Positions 3,652-64,000 are shown, counted from the first letter of the stretch. The stretch: 64,000 nt of DNA from a virus (IMGVR_UViG_3300031992_000018:64001-128000); one strand, 5' to 3'. Numbers and translations are program-made. Notes: a model not told the origin generated them from the letters alone.

Positions 3652-4369
3652 ATTTTACTTTTTTACCAAAACTTATAAGATTATAATTTATACTTAAACC
3701 AACACCGACATAAACATCTGGTTTTTTATTAATAAATCCATAACCAACACCAATTTGTGGTCCTACACCAATACTCCATCTTGGAGTAGTTTTTGGTAAA
3801 ACAACACCTTGTACATCATTATATTTAAGATATGGATTATTTGATGTTACATATACTTTACTATCTTTAATAGCAACAGTAAGATCTGCATAAACTATAT
3901 CTTTATCAATAGTAAGACCAATATTAGGTTTATTATATTCTATAAATCCAGAAAGTATTCTCCATTTATTTGAAAAATCAAATGGATGTTTAATATAAGT
4001 AGTACTATCACTTACAACAAATGTTGTATCATGTACTGGATAAGGTACTTCAACATTTACATAAACAACTTCACTTGGTTTTGCTTTAAGTTCTTTAACT
4101 TGTTTATAAAGATCTTCATTTGTTTGTTTAAGAAGATTAATATCTCCTTCAAGAACTGTTTTTTCAGCAACTAAATCACCACTTTTAGTTTTCCATAATT
4201 GAACTTCTTCAGTTAAGGCTTTAACATTATTTTCATATATCTTTCTACTATCAATTTGATTAGTACATGATCTAAATAAGAACAATAAAGATATAACCAA
4301 TGCTAAACTTAATATAATTTGTGATTTATATTTATTCCAAAAATCTTTAATTAATTCAATAAAATTCAT
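3650..4369 (-). CDS. membrane-anchored coiled-coil protein (DUF6549-like; possible lipoprotein/spanin-like)
   Basis: N-terminal hydrophobic helix ending FRSC, coiled coil, C-terminal Gly-rich beta hairpin SIGVGPQIGVGYG. Confidence 0.5.
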   Translation of the reverse strand: MNFIELIKDFWNKYKSQIILSLALVISLLFLFRSCTNQIDSRKIYENNVKALTEEVQLWKTKSGDLVAEKTVLEGDINLLKQTNEDLYKQVKELKAKPSEVVYVNVEVPYPVHDTTFVVSDSTTYIKHPFDFSNKWRILSGFIEYNKPNIGLTIDKDIVYADLTVAIKDSKVYVTSNNPYLKYNDVQGVVLPKTTPRWSIGVGPQIGVGYGFINKKPDVYVGVGLSINYNLISFGKKVK

Positions 4370-4422
4370 AAAATTAATAGAAAAAATATATTTTTATATA
4401 GGTAATTAAAAATAATTTTTTT

Positions 4423-4881
4423 ATGTCAACTAATAATTATATAAAACATCAAGGACCTAGAAAAAATTCTAAATATCATCAAGGTGTAGTTGATCCTAAA
4501 AAGCTTAGAAAATATTTTGATTCATGTAAAAATGAACCAGTTATTTATAGAAGTGGATTAGAATATCAATTTATACAGTTTTGTGAAAATAGTCCTACAG
4601 TTGCTAAATGGGCAAGTGAAGTACTTAAGATACCTTATTATTCTCATCTTGATGGTAAAGAATGTAATTATTATCCTGATTATGTTATTGAAAATTACAA
4701 AGGAGTAAAATGCGTAGTAGAGCTTAAACCATATAATCAAACAATAAAACCAGATATGACAGATAGTAATTGGTTGAAAGAACAATGGATTAAGAATGTT
4801 GATAAATGGAATGCTGCTAAAAAATTCTGTGATGAGAATGGACTTAAATTTATGATTATAACTGAAAAATTCTTTGAATAA
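4423..4881 (+). CDS. head completion nuclease, T4 gp4-like (TnsA-type endonuclease fold)
   Basis: YRSGLE...WASE..IPY...YYPDY...VELKP..Q motifs. Confidence 0.85.
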   Translation: MSTNNYIKHQGPRKNSKYHQGVVDPKKLRKYFDSCKNEPVIYRSGLEYQFIQFCENSPTVAKWASEVLKIPYYSHLDGKECNYYPDYVIENYKGVKCVVELKPYNQTIKPDMTDSNWLKEQWIKNVDKWNAAKKFCDENGLKFMIITEKFFE

Positions 4882-4885
4882 AAAT

Positions 4886-5266
4886 ATGAAAACATTAGTA
4901 CAATATATTAAAGAAAGTAAAGACGGTAAAATATTATATAATGATATATTTAATAAATTATATAAATACCTTTTGAAATCTAATAAAGAAAATAAGAAAG
5001 GATATTCTGATAAAGAAATAGATGATTATTTTCATCAAGATTTAAACTCAGATTCATTTAAAGAAAATGAAAATAAAGTTGTTAAAGAATTATTTGAAGA
5101 ATATCCAGACATGGATTGGAGTACCAAATCCCAATTAATGGAATATATTAAAAGAAATAATAATGCTCTTTGTGCAAAAGAATTAATCGGTACAGCACTT
5201 TATCAGGCATTTGTAAAATTTGTTTATATTCATATTCAACATATAAAATATGAAGGACATGTTTAA
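4886..5266 (+). CDS. putative head-internal protein with CTS-like leader
   Basis: Starts MKTLVQYIKE; lies between the gp4- and gp2-like genes. Confidence 0.6.
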   Translation: MKTLVQYIKESKDGKILYNDIFNKLYKYLLKSNKENKKGYSDKEIDDYFHQDLNSDSFKENENKVVKELFEEYPDMDWSTKSQLMEYIKRNNNALCAKELIGTALYQAFVKFVYIHIQHIKYEGHV

Positions 5267-13461: not shown

Positions 13462-13629
13462 ATGAATAAAGAAGAATTATCAAAGAAAATCCATGATGCT
13501 TTGATGGAGTATTCATTTAAGATTGCAATGGAAAGTGAAGATGGTAAATTTAGCATGTCTGATATGTGTGAAGCATTCCATAAGGGTACTGAAGTAATTC
13601 TTGAATCATTAAACATTAATCTTGATTAA
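13462..13629 (+). CDS. hypothetical protein (55 aa, absent from the ORF track)
   Basis: MNKEELSKKIH...NLD* translated by hand. Confidence 0.55.
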   Translation: MNKEELSKKIHDALMEYSFKIAMESEDGKFSMSDMCEAFHKGTEVILESLNINLD

Positions 13630-13630
13630 T

Positions 13631-15058
13631 ATGACTTTTAAGACTCTTCCATATGATAACTTACTTAAGGAAATTGGCTGTGTTGCTGATGATCTTAAGT
13701 ATGAATGCTATGTAGTTGGTGGTTTTGTTCGTGACCTACTTCTTAATAGAGACAATGATGACATTGATGTTGTTGTTGTTGGTAAGGGAGTAGAGATGGC
13801 TAAGACCTATGTAAAATATCTTCGGGGTTTAGGAAGAAATGTAAAGTATTCTTTTTTTGAAAACTTTGGTACCGCTCAGGTTAAGGTTGATGATCCTGAG
13901 TATGGTGATATTGAAGTTGAGTTTGTTGGCGCAAGAAAGGAATCTTATGAGCGTGGTTCTAGAAAGCCTATTGTTGAAGAAGGTACTCTTCGTGATGACC
14001 AGCTTCGTCGCGACTTTACTATCAATGCAATGGCAATTTGTTTGAATAAGAAGCATTTTGGAAAGCTTGTTGACCCTTTCAATGGAGTTGATGATCTTAA
14101 AAGAGGAATTATTCGTACTCCAGTAAATCCAGATATTACTTTTTCTGATGATCCTCTTCGTCAGCTTCGCGCTGTTCGTTTTGCAGCTAAGCTAAATTTT
14201 GATATTGATAGAAATACTTTTGAAGGAATTCAGAGAAATGCAGATAGGCTTTCTATCATCTCTGAGGAAAGAATCAATGTTGAACTTATGAAAATTCTTG
14301 CTTCTGACTCTCCTTCTAAGGGTATTCATCTTCTTCTTGATACTGGACTTCTTGAGAAGTTTCTTCCTGAAGTAAGTAAATTAAATACTGATGGAAGGAC
14401 TGAGAAGATTACTCATGGGCATAAGAATATCTTTGCTCATACTCTTGAAGTTCTTTCAAATGTAAGTGCAAAGACTTCTAATCCTTGGATTCGTCTTGCT
14501 GCACTTCTTCATGACATTGGTAAGATTCCTACCAGAAAATATATTCCTGGTACTGGTTATACTTTTATGGGACATGAGAATGTTGGAGCAAACATGGTTG
14601 ATGTAATTTTCCGCCGTCTTAAGCTTCCTCTTGATGAGCATCTTACTCTTGTACATAATTTGGTAAAGCTTCATATGCGTCCTCAGTCAATTGCTTCTGA
14701 AGGTGTTACTGATTCTGGCGTACGTCGTCTTGTCTTTGATGCTGATGGACATATTGATGACCTTCTTATTCTTGCTGAAAGTGATATTACTACTGGTAAA
14801 CTTGCAAAGAAAGAGAAGTTTATTGCTCAGTATGAGGAGTTGAAGAAAAGGATTGAAGAGCTTAAGCAAGCTGACTTTGTAAGAACTTTCCAGCCTTGTG
14901 TAAGTGGTAATGATATTATGGAAAGATATGGTCTTTCTCCTTGTAAGAAGGTTGGTGAACTGAAGCAGATTATCAAGGATGCTGTTCTTGATGGTACTGT
15001 AGAGAACACTCCTGAAAAGCTATATGAGATTCTTGATAAAGAAATGAATTATGAATAA
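13631..15058 (+). CDS. cca: CCA tRNA nucleotidyltransferase with HD domain
   Basis: VGGFVRD, DIDVV, RRDFTINAMA, DDPLR..RAVRF, LLHDIGK; FGTAQVK/EVEFVGARKESY resembles Bacteroidales enzymes. Confidence 0.92.
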   Translation: MTFKTLPYDNLLKEIGCVADDLKYECYVVGGFVRDLLLNRDNDDIDVVVVGKGVEMAKTYVKYLRGLGRNVKYSFFENFGTAQVKVDDPEYGDIEVEFVGARKESYERGSRKPIVEEGTLRDDQLRRDFTINAMAICLNKKHFGKLVDPFNGVDDLKRGIIRTPVNPDITFSDDPLRQLRAVRFAAKLNFDIDRNTFEGIQRNADRLSIISEERINVELMKILASDSPSKGIHLLLDTGLLEKFLPEVSKLNTDGRTEKITHGHKNIFAHTLEVLSNVSAKTSNPWIRLAALLHDIGKIPTRKYIPGTGYTFMGHENVGANMVDVIFRRLKLPLDEHLTLVHNLVKLHMRPQSIASEGVTDSGVRRLVFDADGHIDDLLILAESDITTGKLAKKEKFIAQYEELKKRIEELKQADFVRTFQPCVSGNDIMERYGLSPCKKVGELKQIIKDAVLDGTVENTPEKLYEILDKEMNYE

Positions 15059-22482: not shown

Positions 22483-22498
22483 ATATTTGTTTTTATTA

Positions 22499-25400
22499 AT
22501 GGCTAAACATAGAGATTTTGGTACAATAAGAGTAAGAATACAATTACCTTCAACTGATGAACAGAAGGCAATAGTAGGAAGTATGCCTGATAATTTACAA
22601 AAAATAGGTGCAGATATTGATAGTGCTATGTTAGCTATTATTACCGGAGATACATCTAAAAAACCTAATATCGGTGATATTGCTAAAGGATTTACTATCG
22701 GTAAAGATGGTACATTATTTAGTAATATAAAAAATATTAATGAAGAAATTACACAAATAAAAACTGAATTAACTAATAGTAATAAAACATTATCAGATAT
22801 ATATGGTTTACTTAATTCAATTACTACTAAAGAAAATCCAGAATCAAAAAAATCATCTGTTCTTATTGTTGATACAACAAAGGCAAATAATTTAGAACAA
22901 ATTCTTGGAGAGGTAAAAAATCTTGCTAATAATTCAAATGAAGTTGATTTAGATGGTTTTATTAACATTGAAAAATTCTTTATAATGTTAAATGAACTAA
23001 CTAATGAAAATGGTATAATAACTCAAGCAGTAAATAATACAAATAATATACCTAATTTATCTAAAAAGGCAAATAAAAATATTCATACATTAACATCTTT
23101 ATTTACTGCTATTAATAATTTAATTGTAATAGATTCTAATAAAATAAAAAGTAGTAGTGATGAACTTAAAGCTAGTATTGAATATTTAAATAAAATATTA
23201 GAAGATATATCAAAGCTTGACATTGATGATAATATTAAAAATGTCAAGAAAACATTTGATTCTATAAAGAGTTTATATGATGATAATGTTAAAGTAACTG
23301 CTGAAGCAGTAAAAAATCATACAGCAGACCTAAATACTATAAAATTAGGTCTTGATCAATCATATGAAACAGTTATAACATCTCATGATAGAATGAGTGA
23401 TTTAGATATTGATGATATAGAATTAACTGCTGGTGATGTCGCAGGTGCTATTGCTTTATTAGGTGTAGTTATGCTTATTGGTGGAGCAATAATAAAGAAT
23501 AATCCAGACTTAATTCTTGAATCAGTAAAATTTGGTGCTGTATTAACTACTTTCTTATTAGAATTAAGTATACCTATTGCTGTTATTGGTGTAATAAATA
23601 ATAGACTTGACGCATCTTTTGATTCTTTAGCTGAATTAACTGTTTTTATAACAATTGCATCATTTGTAATGTTTATTGGCGCATTAGTTGTTCAAAATAA
23701 GAGATTAGTTATTAATTCATTATTATTTGGTACGGTTTTCTCAATATTTTTATTTGTAACTCTTGGAGCTATTAATATTGCTACAAAAAATATTACTCCT
23801 GAACTATTCAAAGATATTCATAAATTATCTTGGTTAATCATTACATGTACATTTGTAATGTTGATTGCTACTAAATTTGTTGAATCAAAAGAAATATGGG
23901 CTAATGCTTTACTATTTGGAATAATATTAGGAGGTTTTATCATTGCTGTATTATTACCATTTGCTTTATATGGTAGATTATTTAAAAAGACAATAGAGAT
24001 AGCATCAGGTGCTGTACAATTAATTTTAGTATGTACACTAATAATGGTTATTGCAGCATATTTTGTTAAAACAAAAGAAATATGGGAAAATTCATTAAGA
24101 TTTAGTGGTTTATTATTTGTATTTATATTTGCTACTACTGCACCACTATTATTCTTTGCTCTTCTTAAAGAAAAAGCATATGAAGCTATAGATTCTTATA
24201 GAAGATTTATAGTTACATCATTAATTATAATGACATTAGGTATCATCTTTATGAATATTAAAGGTGGTAAATATGCTATTGATGCTTTACAATTTGGTGC
24301 TTTATTAGGAGCATTTATATTTGCAACATTATTACCTGTTCTTTTATTTATTCCTTTACAGAAGAAAGCAACATCAACAATATTAGTTATAACTTTATTT
24401 GTATTAAGTTGTGCTGCTATATTATTTATGGCTGCTACTATTATTGAAAGTGGTACATGGAAAGCTGCATTATTATTTAGTGTAGCAATGGGATTATTTA
24501 TTACATCAATATTATTACCATTTAAGAAAGGTGTTAATGAAAGTATTACTAGAGCAACATTAGCTATTTTATCATTAAGTGTTTTAGTATTTGTTTCAGG
24601 ATATACTATAAAAATGGTAGCAGAAACTGTTAAAGATAATGGTTGGGGTAAAACTTTAATAGGTGCTGGTATTTTTGTTGCAACATTACTTATTTTAGTT
24701 GGAGGAATTGTATTTATATCTTCACTTATTGAAAATAATATAAATCCAAATAAAGTAAAAGCAATTTCATTTACTTTATTATCTATATCAGTTCTTATAC
24801 TTATAACTTCATATTCTTTATCATTATTGAAGAAATCTGGAATTGAATTAGCAGATATTGGAAAATTTGCTATTTTAAACGCTATTGTTATTGCAATGGT
24901 TGGTTTAATAGTTTGGATTTCAAGTAAAGCAGATTTTAATAACGTTAAAAATACTATAATGATAATGGGAGCAATTAGTCTTACATTATTAGTTATTGTT
25001 GGTACATTATGGTTATTAAAGAAAGCTGAAATTACAAAAGAACATTTAATACAAATTGGACTTATAGCTGCTGGTATTACAGTAATGCTTGCTATTATTA
25101 TGGTTATATCAATGATACCTGCTAAAAGAGTTTTAGAAGCAAGTAAAATAATGTTTGGAATAACATTTGTATTAGCTTTAGCAGTTGGTGCAATATGGTT
25201 AATGAAGAAAGCTAAAATTGATGAAACAGATTTAAAAAGAATTGGACTTATAGCTGGCGGTATTACTGTAATGACAGGTATTATAATGGCAATTAGTTTA
25301 ATACCAGCAAAAAATACAGAAGCAGCTATTGGTATAATGCTTTCTATAGGTATTACATTAGCTTTAGTGGTTGGAGCAATATGGTTAATGAAAACTGCTC

Positions 25401-28400
25401 AAATTAAAGAAGAAGATCTTAAATTAATAGGATGTATAGCTGGTGGTATTACTATAATGACAAGTATTATTATGGGATTATCAGCAATAAAATCAGTTGA
25501 TGCTAAAAAAGCTATATTAATTTTAGCTAGTATTACTATATGTTTAGTAGGATTAGTTTTAACTTTAGCATATTTAGCTAATTCTGGTATTGATTGGAAA
25601 CATATTTGGATGTTATATGCTATTGAAGGAGCTGTTGTAGTTTTAACTGCTATTACAATAGGTATTGGAATATTACTTGAAAAAGTAAAAGATAAAGGAA
25701 AATTTTATGAAAGTTTATTTATAGTTTCTTTAATGACAGCTTGTGTTATTGGATTAGCTCTTGGTATTTCAGAAATAGCAAAAGCTGGTGTTGAATGGAA
25801 ACATGTTTTAATGTTAGGTGCTCTTGAATTAGCTGTTGTAGCTTTAGTTGGTTTAGTTTTTGCTATTGGTGCTATAACTTCAATTCCAGGAGTAAAAACA
25901 TTATTAGCAATTGGTGCAGTTATTATTGCAGCAGCTGTTGGTGTAGTTTTATTAATAGGTATTGCTATAAGAAAAATAGCAGATGCAGCAAAAGAAGCAG
26001 ATGAAGTAAAACATCCAGAATCAATAGGTCTTGTTTTATCAGCATTTTTTAATTCATTTAAAGATTTAAGTTTAGGTAGTACATTAAAATTAGCTTTATT
26101 TGGTAAAAAAATAGCTAAAACAGTTAATAGATTAGTTGAACCAATTTCAAAGATTGTTGAAATTATAAAAAATATATCATCATTAAATGTTCCTACTGGT
26201 TTTGATAAAAATGGTAATCCAACAGGATATACACGTTTAACTCCAGAAGAATTTAAAAAAACTGCAAGTAATATAACAGATATACTTATGGTTATTCCAA
26301 ATGGTGTTGCACCAGCTGCTAAAAGTATAAAGAAATTTGTAAAGAGTAATAAAAAAACAGATAATTTATTAGAAGTAATTAGTAATATGGGCGAAATTAT
26401 TTCTAATATAGCTAAAGGTGTTCAATCATATGCTAATTTAGCAATACCTTCCGGATGGGATGAAAATTGTAAACCAACTGGTTATAGATTAATGAATGAA
26501 CAAGATTTTATAAATGCTGGAAATAGTATAAAACAAATACTTATAATAATACCAGAAGCTATAAAAAATACTTATGGTGATTTAAAGAAATTAATAAAGA
26601 ATAATGAAATTGACAGTGTTATAAAAACTTGTGTAAGTATTGGTGATATTATTGGTAATATAGCTAAAGGTGTTCAATCATATGCTAAATTATTAATTCC
26701 AAAAGATTATGATGAAAATGGTAAGCCTAAAAGATATGAATTAATGACAAAAAAAGATTTTAAGGATGCTGGTGAGGCAATTTCAGAAATTATGCTTACA
26801 ATGACAAAAGGTGTTATTAATGCATATAAAGAATATGAAACTATAATGACACCAAGCAAATTCAAGAAAATTATTAAATCATTTTCTCCTATTGGTGAAT
26901 TAATATCTAATATGAGTAAAGGTATTAAAGATATAATTGAATTAGAAATACCTATATATGATGAAAATGGTAATGTTGTTGGTAAGCAAAAATTAAATGA
27001 AAATGACTTTACTGATTTAAAAACTAATCTTAATATATTAATGACAGGAACATCACAATCAATTGTTGATATTGCTGACAATATGAAGAATAGTGATTTA
27101 GATCCTAGTTCTAAAAAGTTCAAAGCTATTATTGAATCATTTGTACCAATTGGAGAATTTATTTCTAAATTAGCAACTGGTATAAAAGATTATGCGTCAG
27201 CAACTTATACAGATGAAAATGGTAAGAAGATTCATGTTACTCCAGAATATATACAAGAAGCTGGAACTAATATATCTACATTATTAACAACTGTAACAAA
27301 TTCATTAATAGATTATTATAATGATCCTAAATATACAAAGTTATTTGATAAAGATATTATTAAAAATATAGGAACACAATATAAAGAAATTACAGAAGTT
27401 ATAAGTTCAATAATTGATTCTATTAAGAAAATAGGAGAAATTAAAAATGATATTATAATAACTAGTCTTAATAATTTAAATACAATATTTAATGGAACAA
27501 AGAAAGATAAATCAGATAGTTTAATAAATATTATATGCTCAGCATTTAGTGATAATATAAGTTATGATTCAAATAAATTAAAAACTATACAAACTATATT
27601 TACAGATTTATTTGATACTATTAATATATTAAATAAAAATTTAACTGAGAATGAAATTAAAAATATTCCAGAACAAAAAATTATAGCTATTATTGATAGT
27701 ATTACTAATATAATTAATAAATTTAAACCTGGAGATAGTTTTTGGGATGATAATAAGAATGTATTAAATATTGCAAATAAGTTTAAAACATTTGATTTAA
27801 TAAATGGTTATATATCATCATCTATAAAGAAAATTAGTAAATTAATAGATAATATAGATAAATTAAATATTAATAATTTATATTATGAAGAAGTAAATGA
27901 TGAAAATAAAGAAACTAAAAATAAAATTAATAAAATTACTAAAGTATTAAATTCTATTAGTAATATTACTAATATATTAAATTCAAACACAAATGTAAAA
28001 ATAGATAGAGAAAAAATAAATAAATTAAAAAAGGAACTTGGTTTAATAGATAATTTAATAGATGTCTTAAAGAATTCTTTTAAAAAACTTAATAAATTTA
28101 ATAAGGCATATGAAACTGATAATAATTTTGATAATATTTCCATAGCTATTAAAAAGTTTAATATTGCTTTTGCTAATATTAAGAAAGAATTAGAAGGAGA
28201 TCCTAAAAATAATATTCCAGGATTATCTAATGAATCAATTAAAAATTTAGCTAAGTTAGAATATAAAGTTGAAACATTTAGTAATATTGTTAGAGACCTT
28301 ATAAAAGCATCTTCTGATTCAATAAAGAATCCTAAGTTATTTGAACAAATTGGACAAGGTATTTCAACAATAAATAGTAAATTAAATGAAGTAAATAGTA

Positions 28401-28789
28401 ATAATGCTGAAAAGATTGATAATGAAGTTAGATCATTAGATAAATTTGTAAAATCAGTTGATAGAATTGATTTAGTTAAAGTTACAAAAATGACAAGTCT
28501 TATGGAAGCAATGAGTAATTTAGCTGATAAGATGGGTGGTTTTGATAAACTTGCTGAATTATTAGATGGTGATTTTATAGAAATACTTACTAAACTTAAT
28601 GATACAGTTAATGAAGCAAAACAAAGTATAGAAACATCAGAACGTATTAATAAGCAAAGACAGCAAGAATTAAAGAAGAATATTGAAGAATTCAGTAAAC
28701 TTATGGATAAGAATATTGTTGTTGGAGTAAGTGAACTTGATAAAGATGGTAATCTTAAAGTAAGTTCAGAAAAAATAAAAAAGAGTTAA
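22499..28789 (+). CDS. tape-measure-like protein with a long multi-hydrophobic-helix core
   Basis: 2,096 aa from ATG 22499; coiled-coil ends; repeated hydrophobic helices ~aa 320-1160; IAKGVQSYA.L.IP...DENG.P repeats. Confidence 0.7.
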   Translation: MAKHRDFGTIRVRIQLPSTDEQKAIVGSMPDNLQKIGADIDSAMLAIITGDTSKKPNIGDIAKGFTIGKDGTLFSNIKNINEEITQIKTELTNSNKTLSDIYGLLNSITTKENPESKKSSVLIVDTTKANNLEQILGEVKNLANNSNEVDLDGFINIEKFFIMLNELTNENGIITQAVNNTNNIPNLSKKANKNIHTLTSLFTAINNLIVIDSNKIKSSSDELKASIEYLNKILEDISKLDIDDNIKNVKKTFDSIKSLYDDNVKVTAEAVKNHTADLNTIKLGLDQSYETVITSHDRMSDLDIDDIELTAGDVAGAIALLGVVMLIGGAIIKNNPDLILESVKFGAVLTTFLLELSIPIAVIGVINNRLDASFDSLAELTVFITIASFVMFIGALVVQNKRLVINSLLFGTVFSIFLFVTLGAINIATKNITPELFKDIHKLSWLIITCTFVMLIATKFVESKEIWANALLFGIILGGFIIAVLLPFALYGRLFKKTIEIASGAVQLILVCTLIMVIAAYFVKTKEIWENSLRFSGLLFVFIFATTAPLLFFALLKEKAYEAIDSYRRFIVTSLIIMTLGIIFMNIKGGKYAIDALQFGALLGAFIFATLLPVLLFIPLQKKATSTILVITLFVLSCAAILFMAATIIESGTWKAALLFSVAMGLFITSILLPFKKGVNESITRATLAILSLSVLVFVSGYTIKMVAETVKDNGWGKTLIGAGIFVATLLILVGGIVFISSLIENNINPNKVKAISFTLLSISVLILITSYSLSLLKKSGIELADIGKFAILNAIVIAMVGLIVWISSKADFNNVKNTIMIMGAISLTLLVIVGTLWLLKKAEITKEHLIQIGLIAAGITVMLAIIMVISMIPAKRVLEASKIMFGITFVLALAVGAIWLMKKAKIDETDLKRIGLIAGGITVMTGIIMAISLIPAKNTEAAIGIMLSIGITLALVVGAIWLMKTAQIKEEDLKLIGCIAGGITIMTSIIMGLSAIKSVDAKKAILILASITICLVGLVLTLAYLANSGIDWKHIWMLYAIEGAVVVLTAITIGIGILLEKVKDKGKFYESLFIVSLMTACVIGLALGISEIAKAGVEWKHVLMLGALELAVVALVGLVFAIGAITSIPGVKTLLAIGAVIIAAAVGVVLLIGIAIRKIADAAKEADEVKHPESIGLVLSAFFNSFKDLSLGSTLKLALFGKKIAKTVNRLVEPISKIVEIIKNISSLNVPTGFDKNGNPTGYTRLTPEEFKKTASNITDILMVIPNGVAPAAKSIKKFVKSNKKTDNLLEVISNMGEIISNIAKGVQSYANLAIPSGWDENCKPTGYRLMNEQDFINAGNSIKQILIIIPEAIKNTYGDLKKLIKNNEIDSVIKTCVSIGDIIGNIAKGVQSYAKLLIPKDYDENGKPKRYELMTKKDFKDAGEAISEIMLTMTKGVINAYKEYETIMTPSKFKKIIKSFSPIGELISNMSKGIKDIIELEIPIYDENGNVVGKQKLNENDFTDLKTNLNILMTGTSQSIVDIADNMKNSDLDPSSKKFKAIIESFVPIGEFISKLATGIKDYASATYTDENGKKIHVTPEYIQEAGTNISTLLTTVTNSLIDYYNDPKYTKLFDKDIIKNIGTQYKEITEVISSIIDSIKKIGEIKNDIIITSLNNLNTIFNGTKKDKSDSLINIICSAFSDNISYDSNKLKTIQTIFTDLFDTINILNKNLTENEIKNIPEQKIIAIIDSITNIINKFKPGDSFWDDNKNVLNIANKFKTFDLINGYISSSIKKISKLIDNIDKLNINNLYYEEVNDENKETKNKINKITKVLNSISNITNILNSNTNVKIDREKINKLKKELGLIDNLIDVLKNSFKKLNKFNKAYETDNNFDNISIAIKKFNIAFANIKKELEGDPKNNIPGLSNESIKNLAKLEYKVETFSNIVRDLIKASSDSIKNPKLFEQIGQGISTINSKLNEVNSNNAEKIDNEVRSLDKFVKSVDRIDLVKVTKMTSLMEAMSNLADKMGGFDKLAELLDGDFIEILTKLNDTVNEAKQSIETSERINKQRQQELKKNIEEFSKLMDKNIVVGVSELDKDGNLKVSSEKIKKS

Positions 28790-57503: not shown

Positions 57504-57536
57504 AAAAAAGAGCTCTTTTTAAAGAGCTCTTTTTTT
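57504..57536. terminator. bidirectional terminator
   Basis: aaaaaagagctcttt-tt-aaagagctctttttt. Confidence 0.85.
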
Positions 57537-59196
57537 ATTTTTCTTCTCTACTATGTTTATTGTATTCTGATGAATGAAATTCTTCTTCAAAAGTATGTTT
57601 AGCACCAGGATTAATCATATAAGCCATTTTTGCCATTATATCTCTATTAAGAAGAACTGGTGTTGATTTCTTTCTATTATCAACAAGAGCAAAATCTACA
57701 TTAAGTAATTTTCTTGAACCAATCTGAATACAAGGTACTATTACAGTAACTCTTTCTTCACGTACTTGTCCAACTATAGGGTTTGAAACCCCACTTTTCT
57801 TAAATCTATATGTTTTACCATTTATAACTGCTGATACTTTATCTCCAACTACTTCAACTGATTCACAACCAATTGTAGAAGCTTTAGCGCCATTACCTGT
57901 ATCAAATTTAGCTTCAAGTTCAAATTCTGAATCATTATCCATAATAAACTTCATATTTTCAATATAACCAATTGATTTAGGTGCAAGTACAAGCTCATTA
58001 ATATCATTGATTGCATCAAGAAGTATCTTACAGAAATTTTCTCCAATTACTTCAGAAATACCTTCTGTACCTGGAGAGCAGTTATATTCAAGAACAACAT
58101 TATCTCCAATCTCTGGATTAGAACCTTTTACAAGAGGCATAATATCAACAGCACACCAAGGCATACCTGAAATCTTTGCTACATTTAATGCAATATCTTC
58201 TTGTTCTTTAGTAATTTCAACTTTTTCAGCTTCTGCACCAAGAGATACATTACTTCTGAAATCACCACCAAGTTTCTTTCTCTTCATACATGCAAGAATT
58301 GTTTGTTTTGTTCTGCTTGTAAGAACATGCACTCTGATATCACCACCATCAGCTTCTTCTTTCTTTTGAAGAAGTAATTCTCTTTCAGGGTCAATAGCAA
58401 ATATTGCTTGAAGAATTGCAAGAATACCTTTACCTGTTGTCATGAATACACCTGTTCCACCATGACCATCAAGAATCTTTACAACATATTCTCTCTTTTC
58501 ATCTTCTTCTTTATTTTCACCTACTTCTTTATAAATAAGTTTAAGTTTCTTCTGAAGAGATTCTTCACCTTTAGATACATCTTTTGAAGAAAGAAGACAG
58601 AATTTTGGTTGTGGAATATCATATCTTTTCATAAGAACAGCTGAAGCATATTTATTACTTGCTCTTTTAGCTGCTTGAATTGGATTAAGAACAAAAAGAC
58701 CCCAATCTTGAAGTTCTTTAATACATTCCATACATTCTTCACTATCTTGTGCACCAAGACGTGCAATAACTATTGTATCTATATTTGATTGATCTGTTAT
58801 AGTAAATTTCTCTTTAGAATCTTTAATTTCAATTTTCTTATCATCTGCACTATAATCAACTTCTTCAGAAACAAATGTTATAAGATTTACATCTGTATTT
58901 TTAAGTGCATCTTGAAGGTTTTTAAGAGTTTTATTTTTTGAAGCATCTCTTTCATTTGTAAAGAAGATAATATTCTTAAAGAAATATTCTTCATTTCTTT
59001 TTATTTTTTCAGCATTCTGTACAGTATCATTTTTTGCACCTAATTGTTCAGCTGCTTGATCAACTGCTTGGTCTTCTGAACCAGGTTTTTCTGGATTTTT
59101 TTCTGCACCAGTATTTTCTTCTGCTTCTAAAATAGATTCTACTTCATCTATTGATTTAATAAATTTTGATTCTAAAAGTTCAGTTAAAGTTTTCAT
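57535..59196 (-). CDS. RimK-like ATP-grasp ligase fused to a retropepsin-like (RimB/Zn_protease family) domain, with CTS-like leader
   Basis: VVKILDGHGGTGV, DIRV, DFRSNVSLGA, AVDI, LEYNCSPG; C-terminal AKFDTGNG...LLNR; leader MKTLTELLE. Confidence 0.85.
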   Translation of the reverse strand: MKTLTELLESKFIKSIDEVESILEAEENTGAEKNPEKPGSEDQAVDQAAEQLGAKNDTVQNAEKIKRNEEYFFKNIIFFTNERDASKNKTLKNLQDALKNTDVNLITFVSEEVDYSADDKKIEIKDSKEKFTITDQSNIDTIVIARLGAQDSEECMECIKELQDWGLFVLNPIQAAKRASNKYASAVLMKRYDIPQPKFCLLSSKDVSKGEESLQKKLKLIYKEVGENKEEDEKREYVVKILDGHGGTGVFMTTGKGILAILQAIFAIDPERELLLQKKEEADGGDIRVHVLTSRTKQTILACMKRKKLGGDFRSNVSLGAEAEKVEITKEQEDIALNVAKISGMPWCAVDIMPLVKGSNPEIGDNVVLEYNCSPGTEGISEVIGENFCKILLDAINDINELVLAPKSIGYIENMKFIMDNDSEFELEAKFDTGNGAKASTIGCESVEVVGDKVSAVINGKTYRFKKSGVSNPIVGQVREERVTVIVPCIQIGSRKLLNVDFALVDNRKKSTPVLLNRDIMAKMAYMINPGAKHTFEEEFHSSEYNKHSREEK

Positions 59197-59285: not shown

Positions 59286-59855
59286 ATGATAAATTCAAAG
59301 TTAAATGATTATTTATATAATATAGATAATTTAAGAAATATTGACCGTTATCAAATAGCTCATAAGATTACAAAAGAAACAGTTGCTGAACATTCTTTTT
59401 TTGTTGCTTCTTATATATTAAAACTTCATGATTATTATAATTTTAATTTAGAGAAGGCACTTACTATGGGTTTACTTCATGATTTTAGTGAAGTATTTAT
59501 TAGTGATGTACCTCATCCAATTAAGATGGCTTTTCCTGATATAAATAAACAATTAGAAAAAGCTGAATATGATATGAATAGTAAATATATATCTAAGGAT
59601 TTTGCTGATAATCTTGAAGAATTTAATAATCTTACGACTGTTGAAGGTAAAATTGTAAATGTAGCTGATATTCTTTCAGTTATATCATATTCTAAATATG
59701 AAATATCTCTTGGAAATTCTCAATATATGAAAGATGTTCTTAATAGAGGATTAATGAGAATTAAAGATGCTCTTGATTTAATTGAAGATAATATAAAACC
59801 AGAATATAAAACATTTGATATATTATCTGAAATTATTGATTTTTCAAAACGATAA
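59286..59855 (+). CDS. HD-domain 5'-deoxynucleotidase/dNTPase (YfbR/DatZ-like)
   Basis: RY......ETVAEHSF.VA, LLHDFSE...SDVP.P.K, V..AD. Confidence 0.8.
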   Translation: MINSKLNDYLYNIDNLRNIDRYQIAHKITKETVAEHSFFVASYILKLHDYYNFNLEKALTMGLLHDFSEVFISDVPHPIKMAFPDINKQLEKAEYDMNSKYISKDFADNLEEFNNLTTVEGKIVNVADILSVISYSKYEISLGNSQYMKDVLNRGLMRIKDALDLIEDNIKPEYKTFDILSEIIDFSKR

Positions 59856-59927
59856 TTATATATTAGATTATATGGAGAAATATAGTCTATATAATCTATG
59901 TTTTAAAATATATTACAAATTAAATAT

Positions 59928-62900
59928 ATGAGTAAAAGAAAAGATCTTAAAAAGATTATGGTCATAGGTAGTGGTCCAATTGTAATTGGTCAAGCTGCCG
60001 AATTTGATTATGCTGGTACACAAGCATGTCTTGCACTTAAAGAAGAAGGATATGAAGTTATTCTTGTAAATTCTAATCCAGCAACAATTATGACAGATAC
60101 TAATATTGCTGATAAGGTTTATATGGAACCTTTGACTTTTGATTATGTATCTAAAATTATTTATAAAGAACGTCCAGATGGTATTGTACCAGGTCTTGGT
60201 GGTCAGACAGGATTAAATCTTGTAACAGAACTTTCACAAAAAGGTGTTCTTGATGAATGTGGTGTAGAAGTTCTTGGTACATCATTTGAAAGTATAAATA
60301 TTGCTGAAGACAGAGAAAAATTTAAAAACTTTTGTATTGATAATAATATTCCTGTAATTCCTTCGGAGATTGTACATGATATTCAAGGTGCTATTAATGC
60401 AGCATCTTCAATTGGATATCCTGTTGTTCTTCGTCCAGCATTCACTCTTGGTGGAACAGGTGGTGGATTTGCTTATAATGAAGATGAATTAAAGGAACAT
60501 ATGATAAATGCTCTTAATCTTTCACCTATTCATCAGGTACTTATAGAAAAGAGTGTAAAAGGTTATCGTGAGATTGAATTTGAAGTAATGAGAGATAACA
60601 ATAACAATGCTATATGTATTTGTGGAATGGAAAATGTTGATCCTGTTGGAATTCATACAGGTGATTCAATTGTTGTTGCTCCATGTATAACAGTTTGTAA
60701 AAATGATTATGAAAGGTTAAAAAATGATGCTTTAAAGATTATTAAGAAATTACAAATTGCTGGTGGATGTAATGTACAGTTTGCTCTTTCTCAAGAAGAT
60801 GAAGATAAATATTATATTATTGAAATTAATCCTCGTGTATCTCGTTCATCAGCTCTTGCATCAAAAGCATCTGGTTATCCTATTGCAAGAGTAACTGCTA
60901 AGATTGCTGTTGGTTATAATCTTAATGAAATAAATCTTGATGATCATACAGCATTGTTTGAACCTTGTCTTGATTATATAATTGCTAAATTCCCAAGATT
61001 TCCATTTGATAAATTTGAAGAAGCTAAAGATGAACTTTCAACTCAGATGAAAGCAACTGGTGAAGTTATGTCAATTGGTAAAACTCTTGAAGAAGCTTTC
61101 TTAAAGGGTCTTAGAAGTCTTGAAACAAAAACATATCATTTATATAATTCTAAATTTGATCATTTTAAGAAACAAGAACTTATTGAATATATTTCAACTG
61201 ATGCATATGATAAGATTTTTGCTATAGCACAACTTCTTAGGATTGGTGTATCTGTAAAAGAAATATTTAATAAGACAATGATATGTGAAGATTTTTTAGT
61301 AGCATTTAGAAATATTGTTGAATTTGAAGAGAAGGTAGAACATTATGGCAAAGATGAAAATGCTGATTTTGGTGATATAATTTATAGAGCAAAGTTATTA
61401 GGTTTTTCTGATGAAGAAATAGCTCATCTTATAGATACAGATCCTTATGAAATTACTAAATATCGTTTAGATAATGGTTATGTACCAAAATATAGAATAG
61501 TTGATTGTTATTGTTATAGATATTCTATTGATATAAATGGTAAAGAATATGAACATAAGAGATCAATTCCTTATTTCTATTCAACATATAATGATCTTGT
61601 AGAAAATGAATCAGTAAGAAGTAATAAAAAGAAAATCATAGTTCTTGGTTCTGGTCCTATACGTATTGGTCAAGGTGTAGAATTTGACTATTCTACAGTA
61701 CATGCAATATGGGCTATCAAGAATATGGGTTATGAAGCTATTATCATTAATAACAATCCTGAAACAGTTTCAACAGACTACACTATTTCTGATAAACTTT
61801 ATTTTGAACCTCTTACTGTTGAGGATGTAATGAATGTAATTAATTTTGAAAAACCTGATGGAGTAATTGTATCTCTTGGTGGACAAACAGCAGTAAATCT
61901 TGCTAATCCTCTTTCTAAGTTCAATATTCCAATTATAGGTACTGGAATTGAAGCAATTAATAATGCTGAAGATAGAAAGATTTTTGAAAGCATTCTTGAA
62001 GAACTTAATATTCCTCAACCAAAAGCTATTGCTGTAACAAATATTGAAGATGGTTTAAAAGCTGCTAATGAAATTGGTTATCCAGTACTTGTTCGTCCAA
62101 GTTTTGTTCTTGGTGGTCGTGCAATGATGATTGTTGGTAATGATGATACTCTTAAGCATTATCTTGCTAATGCTGTTGCTCTTGATGAAAAATCTCCAGT
62201 TCTTATTGATAAATATATACAAGGTATTGAGTGTGAAGTAGATGCAATATGTGATGGAGAAACAGTACTTATTCCAGGTATAATGGAACATATTGAAAGA
62301 ACTGGTGTTCATTCTGGAGACTCTATAAGTATATATCCTTCAGTTAAATTAACTGATATAAATAAACAAAGGATTATTGAATATACAAAGAAACTTGGTG
62401 TAAGAATTGGTATTAAAGGATTATTTAATATTCAATATATTGCTAATGGTGATGATATTTATGTTATTGAGGTAAATCCAAGAAGTTCTAGAACAATTCC
62501 ATTCTTAAGTAAGTCTACTAATATTCCTATGGCAAAAATTGCTACAGAAATAATGTTAGGTAAGAAATTAGTTGATTATGGATATCCTGAATATATTCCT
62601 GAAAAGAATTCATATTTTATCAAAACTCCTGTATTTTCATTTAATAAACTTATAGGTGTTGAGTCATATTTGTCACCAGAGATGAAATCTACAGGTGAGG
62701 CGATAGGTATTGATAAAACTTTCACAAAAGCTCTCCAGAAGAGTTTGTGCGCCTCTGGATTAAAGATTAAAGACCATGGTACGATATTCGTAAGTGTATA
62801 TGATGATGATCGTGAAGAAGTATTACCTATTATAAAGAGATTTTATGATTTAGGATTTAATATTGAATCTATAAATGGTACAGCTACTTTCTTAAAAGAA

Positions 62901-63149
62901 CATGGTATACATACTAAGACTCTTAAGAATCTTTCATATTATGATCTTATTAGAAATGGACACTTTACATATATAATCAATAGGATTAATGTAAATCAGC
63001 ATTCATCTCATCTTGATGATTATGGTATTCGTCACGTTGCTACTGAATGTAATGTACCAGTATTTACATGTCTTGATACAGTAAATGCACTTCTTGATGT
63101 TATTGAAGATATAACATTAAACGTTAATGATATTACTAAATTCAATTAA
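59928..63149 (+). CDS. carB: carbamoyl-phosphate synthase large subunit
   Basis: GSGPIVIGQAAEFDY, RPAFTLGGTGGG, GIHTGDS, EINPRVSRSS; second ATP-grasp RPSFVLGGRAM, GVHSGDS, EVNPRSSRT; C-terminal MGS-like domain. Confidence 0.97.
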   Translation: MSKRKDLKKIMVIGSGPIVIGQAAEFDYAGTQACLALKEEGYEVILVNSNPATIMTDTNIADKVYMEPLTFDYVSKIIYKERPDGIVPGLGGQTGLNLVTELSQKGVLDECGVEVLGTSFESINIAEDREKFKNFCIDNNIPVIPSEIVHDIQGAINAASSIGYPVVLRPAFTLGGTGGGFAYNEDELKEHMINALNLSPIHQVLIEKSVKGYREIEFEVMRDNNNNAICICGMENVDPVGIHTGDSIVVAPCITVCKNDYERLKNDALKIIKKLQIAGGCNVQFALSQEDEDKYYIIEINPRVSRSSALASKASGYPIARVTAKIAVGYNLNEINLDDHTALFEPCLDYIIAKFPRFPFDKFEEAKDELSTQMKATGEVMSIGKTLEEAFLKGLRSLETKTYHLYNSKFDHFKKQELIEYISTDAYDKIFAIAQLLRIGVSVKEIFNKTMICEDFLVAFRNIVEFEEKVEHYGKDENADFGDIIYRAKLLGFSDEEIAHLIDTDPYEITKYRLDNGYVPKYRIVDCYCYRYSIDINGKEYEHKRSIPYFYSTYNDLVENESVRSNKKKIIVLGSGPIRIGQGVEFDYSTVHAIWAIKNMGYEAIIINNNPETVSTDYTISDKLYFEPLTVEDVMNVINFEKPDGVIVSLGGQTAVNLANPLSKFNIPIIGTGIEAINNAEDRKIFESILEELNIPQPKAIAVTNIEDGLKAANEIGYPVLVRPSFVLGGRAMMIVGNDDTLKHYLANAVALDEKSPVLIDKYIQGIECEVDAICDGETVLIPGIMEHIERTGVHSGDSISIYPSVKLTDINKQRIIEYTKKLGVRIGIKGLFNIQYIANGDDIYVIEVNPRSSRTIPFLSKSTNIPMAKIATEIMLGKKLVDYGYPEYIPEKNSYFIKTPVFSFNKLIGVESYLSPEMKSTGEAIGIDKTFTKALQKSLCASGLKIKDHGTIFVSVYDDDREEVLPIIKRFYDLGFNIESINGTATFLKEHGIHTKTLKNLSYYDLIRNGHFTYIINRINVNQHSSHLDDYGIRHVATECNVPVFTCLDTVNALLDVIEDITLNVNDITKFN

Positions 63150-63192
63150 TAAAAATTACTATATTAAATAAAATTAAAATAATTTATATAAT

Positions 63193-64000
63193 ATGAAGAG
63201 TTTACTTTTAACACTTGGACATAATTCATCCGCAATTTTTGTAGAAGATGGTAAAACACCTATTGGTTATGAAGAAGAAAGATTAACAGGTATTAAATCT
63301 GATTCACAGTTTCCTACTGATGCAATTCATGAAATTGCTAGAAATGTAGGTATTAAGAATATGAAAGGTTGTAAGATATTTATTTCACATTGGTTTGATT
63401 TTATTCCTAATGTAATACCTAATAAATATATTACTCAGACTGATATTGACAATCTTAAAGAAATTTCTGATGATATTACCTTTGTATCTCCAGAATTTAC
63501 ACATCATGATGCTCATGCTTATGCTGGTAAGAGTTTCTTTGATTATCATTTCTCAAAGTTAAATACTGATCCTTATTGTGATGTTTCTCTTAAACTTCAG
63601 CAGAATAAAGATATTTATGTTATTGTAGCTGATGGTTTTGGTAATAATGGTGAGGTTCTTTCAGTTTATAAAATTAATGATTATTTAAATAATAGATTTA
63701 GTAATCTTAATCTTGAACATAGAGTTTATGGATATAAGAATTCTATTGGTCTTATGTATCAGTATGCAACTTCTTATGTTGGTATGAAAGAAAATCAAGA
63801 TGAGTATAAATTCCTTGGATATGAAGCTCATATTGATGAATATCTTAATAAATATAAGATTGATATTCTTGATGCATATATCAAAGAACTTGTAAATACT
63901 CTTTGGGAAGGATTTGAAAGAGATACTAATACTAATGTATATAAAAAGTGTGAATATTTAATTAATTTTGATTCACTTAAAGAAACTAAAGAATATTTCC
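63193..64000 (+). CDS. O-carbamoyltransferase (CmcH/NodU/TobZ family), truncated by the window edge; absent from the ORF track
   Basis: Hand translation: GHNSSA...YEEERL...KSDS.FP..AI, HHDAHA, ADGFG, SIGLMY, EYKFLG. Confidence 0.9.
   Translation, partial: MKSLLLTLGHNSSAIFVEDGKTPIGYEEERLTGIKSDSQFPTDAIHEIARNVGIKNMKGCKIFISHWFDFIPNVIPNKYITQTDIDNLKEISDDITFVSPEFTHHDAHAYAGKSFFDYHFSKLNTDPYCDVSLKLQQNKDIYVIVADGFGNNGEVLSVYKINDYLNNRFSNLNLEHRVYGYKNSIGLMYQYATSYVGMKENQDEYKFLGYEAHIDEYLNKYKIDILDAYIKELVNTLWEGFERDTNTNVYKKCEYLINFDSLKETKEYF

Follow-up and report, generated by a model that had tools for sequence, protein, structure and literature searches.

To our knowledge, 5-carbamoyloxymethyldeoxycytidine (5cmdC) is known from metagenomic selection alone, and neither a cultured phage nor a complete pathway has been described for it. 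The T4 hydroxymethylcytosine pathway (gp42, gp1, gp56, cd and the alpha/beta-glucosyltransferases) decorates its base with glucose. A phage carbamoyltransferase of the NodU/TobZ type converts 5-hydroxymethylcytosine (5hmC) to 5-carbamoyloxymethylcytosine in DNA, RNA and 5hmdCTP, requires carbamoyl phosphate and ATP, and is encoded beside a dCMP deaminase and a thymidylate synthase (TS) homologue whose N177 position holds Asp (Yang et al. 2021, eLife 10:e70021; PMC8670742). The domains reported to co-occur with it are TS, MazG-like PRA-PH and deaminases, and no donor-synthesis gene is among them. Here we describe a locus at the right end of the 64,000-nucleotide (nt) viral DNA stretch IMGVR_UViG_3300031992_000018:64001-128000 (the window), in which a gene for CarB, the large subunit of carbamoyl-phosphate synthase (CPS), lies directly upstream of a NodU/CmcH/TobZ-type O-carbamoyltransferase (CT) gene. 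We estimate the probability that this CarB supplies the carbamoyl donor to CT at roughly 0.6. An earlier note made from the window's sequence had proposed such a self-supplied donor and knew of no described phage pathway with a dedicated CPS; our literature searches likewise turned up no paper that connects a phage CPS with carbamoylated DNA. The window belongs to a linear IMG/VR virus record of 168,026 bp with a CheckV completeness of 59%. Positions beyond its right edge are given in L005 coordinates (window coordinate minus 59000), and L032 coordinates equal the window coordinate minus 54000.

The cluster consists of three real, co-oriented open reading frames (ORFs) on the plus strand, as the earlier note had read it: a small HD phosphohydrolase of 189 amino acids (aa) (59286-59855), CarB (59928-63149, 1073 aa) and CT, whose first 269 aa lie at 63193-64000 and whose reading frame runs on to L005:5971. 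The spacer between CarB and CT measures 43 nt and contains no hairpin, and beyond the window's right edge a terminator-like hairpin (L005:5980-6001) begins 9 nt past the CT stop codon. Because the hairpin is missing from the gap and present after CT, the layout suggests two transcription units, HD-CarB-CT and kinase-TS-like-2-hydroxymethylase-deaminase. A sister phage carries a terminator-like hairpin of different sequence at the same place after CT. Matches to sigma-70-type promoters at the locus did not exceed chance, and the motif TCTATATW, which occurs upstream of HD, carB and the kinase gene, was not enriched (40 matches against 31 ± 6 expected).

Comparison with related phages suggests how CarB came to stand there. 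The gene order in sister phages, on contigs of 295-465 kb, is RimK-like (minus strand), a 198-aa gene (minus), a 288-aa gene (plus), CarB, CT, kinase, TS-like-2 and TS-like. Two further relatives on contigs of 181 and 232 kb, with CT proteins 69-70% identical, have the order CT-kinase-TS-like-2-TS-like and no CarB within 10 kb, and in one of them the RimK-like gene (minus) directly abuts CT. No CarB of intermediate identity was found in the protein database searched. Because a CarB-less relative has RimK against CT and intermediate forms are missing from that database, we conclude that CarB was inserted exactly at the RimK/CT junction in one subclade.

The core of the locus reads as a new member of the published route from 5hmC to 5-carbamoyloxymethylcytosine (Yang et al. 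2021), with CarB as its new part, because CT resembles the characterised enzyme. CT, which the earlier note had recognised from its N-terminal part, is complete in the whole record at 592 aa and shows the two-domain family architecture (Kae1-like N-terminal and YrdC-like C-terminal domains) with the family motifs. The window part matches Carbam_trans_N at 4.9e-11, and the full protein matches Carbam_trans_N at 4e-20 and Carbam_trans_C at 3e-22; the motifs HHDAH, DGFG, GDQG, MEFGPRAL and NTS-N are invariant across 14 relatives. Against the characterised 5hmC carbamoyltransferase, whose diagnostic residues are W408, G421 and R423, the identities are 34/72 (47%) and 29/74 (39%), in two 78-residue segments only. 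The nearest phage relatives of CT are Bacteroides fragilis phages of ~52 kb (47-48% identity) with the same CT-kinase-TS-like-2 order, and CT genes at 34-36% identity lie beside TS-like and deaminase genes in Acinetobacter phages and Xanthomonas phage Xp15. We recovered 54 IMG/VR loci with CT relatives, most of which have a TS-like gene within a few kb and often a kinase or deaminase gene. The TS-like genes beside CT in BF503P1, Xp15 and most of these loci have Asp at the position of ThyA N177. We regard CT as a candidate 5hmC carbamoyltransferase.

A different substrate has been considered for CT, which might carbamoylate a glycan, a component of the virion or some small molecule while CarB still supplied the donor. 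Most NodU/CmcH/TobZ enzymes act on sugars and antibiotics, the relatives of CT in the PDB are NovN, GdmN and TobZ, and genes for an OmpA-domain protein (L005:8886-9989, 367 aa) and a short NAD-dependent epimerase/dehydratase-like protein (L005:10580-11335, 251 aa) follow the deaminase gene a few kb downstream. Cyanophage carbamoyltransferases have also been read as secondary-metabolite enzymes (PMC7824862). However, the CT-kinase-TS-like order is kept across distant phage groups, CT together with a TS homologue has been reported on cytosine-modified contigs only (PMC8670742), and the present CT, which shares 35-50% identity with the phage clade, stands much further from the enzymes of cyanophages or antibiotic pathways, at 22-27%. 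We give a non-DNA substrate very little weight.

The nucleotide genes expected of a cytosine-modifying phage lie just downstream of the window. The earlier note had advised searching there for a hydroxymethylase and a kinase, and both were found. A P-loop kinase gene (L005:6041-6673) is followed by TS-like-2 (L005:6658-7446, genome 129658-130446, 262 aa), which lies just past the window's right edge, then by another TS-like gene, of 235 aa (L005:7430-8137), and a dCMP deaminase gene (L005:8141-8659). The 235-aa protein matches T4 gp42 dCMP hydroxymethylase (PDB 1b49) at 2.6e-51, and in an alignment with T4 gp42 and Escherichia coli ThyA it keeps the nucleophile Cys148, Glu60, Asp179 and the phosphate-binding Arg residues. 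Its Asp179 occupies the position of TS Asn177, a known determinant of cytosine versus uracil (PMC8670742). TS-like-2 has a divergent TS fold (PHROG 160 at 2e-14; T4 gp42 at 5e-10); the catalytic Cys, the phosphate-binding arginines and an Asp at N177 are all retained, whereas it lacks an equivalent of Glu60/Glu58 and reads RASN where TS enzymes read RSxD. The CT-kinase-TS-like-2 order is kept at 72% TS-like-2 identity in sister phages and 49% in Bacteroides phage BF503P1, and recurs in about 18 IMG/VR loci with TS-like-2 proteins of 42-50% identity. The gp42-like hydroxymethylase is only 52% identical to that of the sister phages (L010:16439-17137), compared with 64-84% for neighbouring genes, and its gene has either been replaced or evolves fast.

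This gene set resembles the T4 pathway in the gp42-like enzyme (43-48% identity), the deoxynucleoside monophosphate kinase step and the dCMP deaminase, and the virion type is also shared (a baseplate wedge protein here, Gp23 in relatives). In contrast to T4, the predicted decoration is carbamoyl instead of glucose, and no T4 beta-glucosyltransferase was found in the 168-kb record. The locus shares with the carbamoylating contigs of Yang et al. 2021 the transferase beside a TS homologue with Asp at N177 and a dCMP deaminase, and differs from them in having CarB directly upstream of CT, an HD gene in place of the MazG-like gene and a second TS-fold gene.

The HD protein belongs among the small YfbR/OxsA/DatZ-like phosphohydrolases. 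It matches Pfam YfbR-like at 2.2e-21 and HD_3 at 3e-15 and PHROG 7076 ('dATP triphosphohydrolase') at 1.4e-22; its nearest solved structures are the small HD phosphohydrolases Lin2634, YfbR and OxsA, and the metal motif H...HD...E...D is intact in the PDB alignment. HD homologues occur in base-modification phages, including Yersinia phage YerA41 and Bordetella phages in which the gene adjoins a dUMP hydroxymethylase gene. Cyanophage S-2L offers a parallel in PurZ and DatZ, which pair a phage-made non-canonical base precursor with a small dNTP-editing HD hydrolase, although its base is 2-aminoadenine and the chemistry differs from that considered here. Our guess is that the HD protein is a candidate nucleotide-pool editing enzyme that would remove the canonical nucleotide. 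It may fill the role of dCTPase, because no MazG-type dCTPase was found in the 168-kb record. The HD position in sister phages is occupied by an unrelated 288-aa gene (L010:9138-10004, +), which overlaps the carB start by 4 nt and is absent from the record of the window phage. We rejected this gene as an HD protein or a CarA substitute, as it has no HD similarity and belongs to no Pfam or PHROG family. By eye only, a GS...DxD pattern at the N-terminus of its product recalls Pol-beta-type nucleotidyltransferases.

Several observations indicate that the CarB gene is intact and maintained. The 1073-aa protein contains both CPSase_L_D1/D2 halves and the oligomerisation and MGS-like domains. We aligned E. 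coli CarB with 13 phage-clade CarBs and 107 bacterial (Bacteroidales) relatives, and checked lists of residues that we take, from the E. coli literature, to be the catalytic and tunnel positions. At each of the 20 catalytic positions checked, the 13 phage sequences have the E. coli residue, in agreement with the earlier note's reading of a full-length carB with both ATP-grasp sites intact. The carbamate tunnel is identical to E. coli at 11 of 12 residues and the ammonia tunnel at 9 of 11; the differing residues are shared with the 107 Bacteroidales CarBs, except at Ile352, where the phage clade has Leu and most Bacteroidales have Ile. When the window phage is compared with a sister, CarB has a dN/dS of 0.12, the lowest among the six cluster genes; two sisters compared with each other give 0.08. 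These ratios point to strong purifying selection, and CarB is predicted from its sequence to be functional.

The regulatory part of the protein has a different fate. An MGS-like domain is present, yet residues of its UMP/IMP site have been lost: EATKGTA has become ESINGTA (T974I), LRKLGEGSDEI has become LKNLS-----YY (K993N and a 5-residue deletion), and VINT has become IINR (T1016R). The changes K993N, T974I/V and T1016R and the 5-residue deletion after position 993 occur in 13/13 phage sequences, at positions that are otherwise invariant in the 107 Bacteroidales CarBs and E. coli. Lys993 is named as crucial for binding UMP (PMC6245113). We also counted clade-specific replacements at positions near-invariant in the bacterial relatives. 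The replaced fraction is 16% in the carboxyphosphate and 12% in the carbamoyl-phosphate catalytic domain, compared with 33% in the allosteric domain and 36% in the oligomerisation domain, which is the most changed part, with 40% identity. Phage CarB resembles E. coli CarAB in its four-domain large subunit, its checked catalytic residues and nearly all its tunnel residues, and differs in lacking a small-subunit gene, in its altered UMP/IMP site and in its strongly diverged oligomerisation and allosteric domains.

The pattern of replacement also bears on whether CarB works alone. It could form a hybrid with a host CarA, either live or glutaminase-dead, as its ammonia-tunnel residues are kept and its catalytic domains remain 71-73% identical to Bacteroidales CarB. 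The small subunit touches the carboxyphosphate and oligomerisation domains (PMC6245113), and the latter is exactly where phage CarB has changed most. Replacements are also bunched at E. coli positions 253-273 and 289-293 (A253, L256, T257, D258, E260, R265, R273 and P290), where E. coli and Bacteroidales have the same residues and 13/13 phage CarBs have changed; one possibility is that this cluster lies on the CarA interface. A partnership with host CarA appears rather unlikely to us. The large subunit alone can make carbamoyl phosphate from ammonia (PMC6245113), and we infer from its residues that phage CarB may be blind to pyrimidine feedback and may work without a glutaminase.

A source for the gene can be proposed. 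In the protein search, the window's own protein formed the top tier. The second comprised 12 clusters whose members are 82-84% identical and come from ENA/Logan contigs, the longest of 465 kb, followed by a drop to 64-66% for a third tier of named CarBs from Bacteroidales metagenome-assembled genomes (MAGs). In a quick tree that sampled best hits only, the 13 phage CarBs were monophyletic (support 100), with the sampled Bacteroidales CarBs as their sister group (support 99) and a stem ~3.5 times longer than that of the latter. The nearest bacterial CarB gene lies within a full pyrimidine operon, pyrC-carA-carB-pyrK-pyrD-pyrF-pyrE-pyrB. The CarA of that operon (3926-5008 on each of two Bacteroidales MAG contigs, L033 and L034) reads GLGLGME where E. 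coli reads GICLGHQ, so that the glutaminase nucleophile Cys269 is replaced by Gly; it also has a 4-residue deletion in the SNGPGDP motif and keeps His353 and Glu355. With the nucleophile replaced, this host-type CPS is probably ammonia-dependent, and the donor lineage probably already used ammonia. We propose that phage CarB is a capture of the Bacteroidales pyrimidine-operon CPS without carA. Mammalian CPS1, an ammonia-dependent form, and the Bacteroidales pyr-operon CPS, probably another, keep an inactive glutaminase part that is absent from the side of the phage gene.

Ammonia is plentiful in the rumen, and such an environment would suit an ammonia-fed CPS. Metagenome runs from 15 studies of sheep and bovine gut contain DNA of the stretch. 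The single hint of expression comes from one sheep-gut metatranscriptome run, in which 53% of the sampled words were present, and their source could be DNA. The record has a GC content of 25% and belongs to a tailed phage by its gene content (a baseplate wedge protein and a DNA helicase whose nearest relatives, at 40% identity, are in Prevotella Lak phages); a T4-type Gp23 capsid gene is present on the contig of a relative, and megablast of the region against GenBank phages gave no match. The source is proposed to be a large T4-like phage of rumen Bacteroidales.

Carbamoyl phosphate is also a precursor of pyrimidines, and CarB may be an auxiliary metabolic gene (AMG) that feeds host aspartate transcarbamoylase (ATCase) and UMP synthesis for the replication of a large AT-rich genome, its adjacency to CT being incidental. 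The donor gene came from a pyr operon, and a survey of ocean viromes counts carB among viral AMGs and assigns it to UMP synthesis (Microbiome 2024; PMC11360552). That entry resembles the present case in being a CarB-annotated gene on viral contigs, and is unlike it in being a low-confidence fold in a catalogue, with no carbamoyltransferase or DNA-modification link. The gene content of the record does not favour pyrimidine supply. The earlier note had found no carA, pyrB or argF in the window, and in the 168-kb record as a whole neither a CPSase small chain (PF00988) nor a GATase (PF00117) turned up, nor did OTCace_N (PF02729; ATCase/ornithine transcarbamoylase (OTCase)); carB is not embedded in a pyr/arg pathway within the record, no other pyr gene accompanies it, and the 10 kb around carB in the sister phages contain neither carA nor a GATase gene. 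The insertion exactly at the RimK/CT junction and the 43-nt spacing ahead of a positionally conserved hairpin also speak against incidental adjacency.

Other viral CarB genes give a further contrast. Scanning IMG/VR with the CarB protein alone yielded no close relative, and a profile scan found 13 other CarB loci, none with a CT; carA lies directly upstream in all 12 whose upstream DNA could be seen. Because all lack CT and those 12 have carA directly upstream, we rejected these 13 loci as parallels, and they look like ordinary bacterial-type carAB. The tblastn matches to CarB in a 'phages' collection were also rejected, being short unannotated contigs or bacterial-looking sequences of ~54% identity or less. 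Many of these records are named Listeria, Staphylococcus, Enterococcus or Salmonella phages, carry a bacterial-type carB and look like host DNA filed as phage. Taken with the position of the gene, pyrimidine supply as the reason for its presence seems rather unlikely to us, and it can coexist with donor supply to CT.

Some results weigh against donor supply for base modification as the explanation. In the 54 other viral CT loci, CarB is missing from the 10 kb around CT, and no CPSase_L_D2 domain was found in nine whole CT-bearing viral records, five of them at least 98% complete (106-388 kb). CarB is therefore not a general part of the 5hmC-carbamoylation pathway and is hence dispensable to it. 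Other phages with CT do without it, its product could just as well go into host pyrimidine synthesis, and the loss of UMP-site residues would suit pyrimidine supply equally well. In sister phages, no HD gene turned up within 10 kb of carB. The absence of the genes for CarA, GATase, ATCase and OTCase is not final, because the record is linear and 59% complete, and carA or pyr genes could sit in the missing 41%. Moreover, E. coli CarB working with ammonia needs very high, probably unphysiological levels (PMC6245113). The case for a phage that makes its own carbamoyl donor for base modification, as the earlier note had suggested, is supported by the CT-TS association, the insertion between RimK and CT, the conserved hairpin after CT and the purifying selection on CarB, and donor supply to CT remains the explanation we prefer.

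We propose that the locus is a two-part DNA cytosine hypermodification system of a large T4-like phage of rumen Bacteroidales. The kinase, TS-like-2, hydroxymethylase and deaminase would convert dCMP to 5-hydroxymethyl-dCMP, which would be phosphorylated so that 5hmC enters phage DNA. The HD-CarB-CT part would make carbamoyl phosphate and move the carbamoyl group, via carbamoyl-AMP, to the 5-hydroxymethyl group, and the end product would be 5-carbamoyloxymethylcytosine. Phage CarB is expected to use free ammonia, because it was captured without carA from a CPS whose small subunit lacks the glutaminase cysteine. Because key UMP/IMP-binding residues are lost, it would also go on producing carbamoyl phosphate at pyrimidine levels that would switch off the enzyme of the host. 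The full version of this proposal, in which the synthetase subunit alone was recruited from the host pyrimidine-operon CPS and became stand-alone, ammonia-fed and feedback-blind, in one transcription unit with the transferase and independent of host regulation, is tentative, and we place it a little short of even odds.

The flanks of the module hold further genes. On the left, the RimK-like ATP-grasp ligase gene (57535-59196, minus strand, 553 aa; Pfam RimK 1.9e-20) is closed by a bidirectional terminator-like hairpin (57504-57535; L032 3504-3535) with a 14-bp stem and T runs on both strands. The gene is transcribed divergently from the cluster, and its family, PHROG 2599, is annotated as ribosomal protein S6 modification. 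The ligase is 68% identical in sister phages, where it holds the same position, and could be either unrelated to the pathway or part of it. On the right, the OmpA-domain gene also follows the module in a relative. Elsewhere, the window encodes a tRNA nucleotidyltransferase of the CCA-adding type (13622-15058, +; PHROG 2244) and an ORF of 2100 aa (22487-28789, +).

That a phage should carry a 3.2-kb host enzyme and re-tune it suggests that the supply of donor can be limiting for DNA hypermodification. As a predicted, naturally stand-alone CarB that uses ammonia and is probably feedback-blind, the protein would be a useful object for CPS enzymology, and CarB paired with CT could allow carbamoylated DNA to be made enzymatically, in a self-contained system, starting from simple salts. 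The proposal also ties a trait of a phage to a habitat rich in ammonia, the rumen, and to a Bacteroidales pyr-operon CPS whose small subunit lacks the glutaminase cysteine. If true, the phage would escape host regulation by making the carbamoyl donor for its DNA itself, out of bicarbonate, ammonia and ATP.

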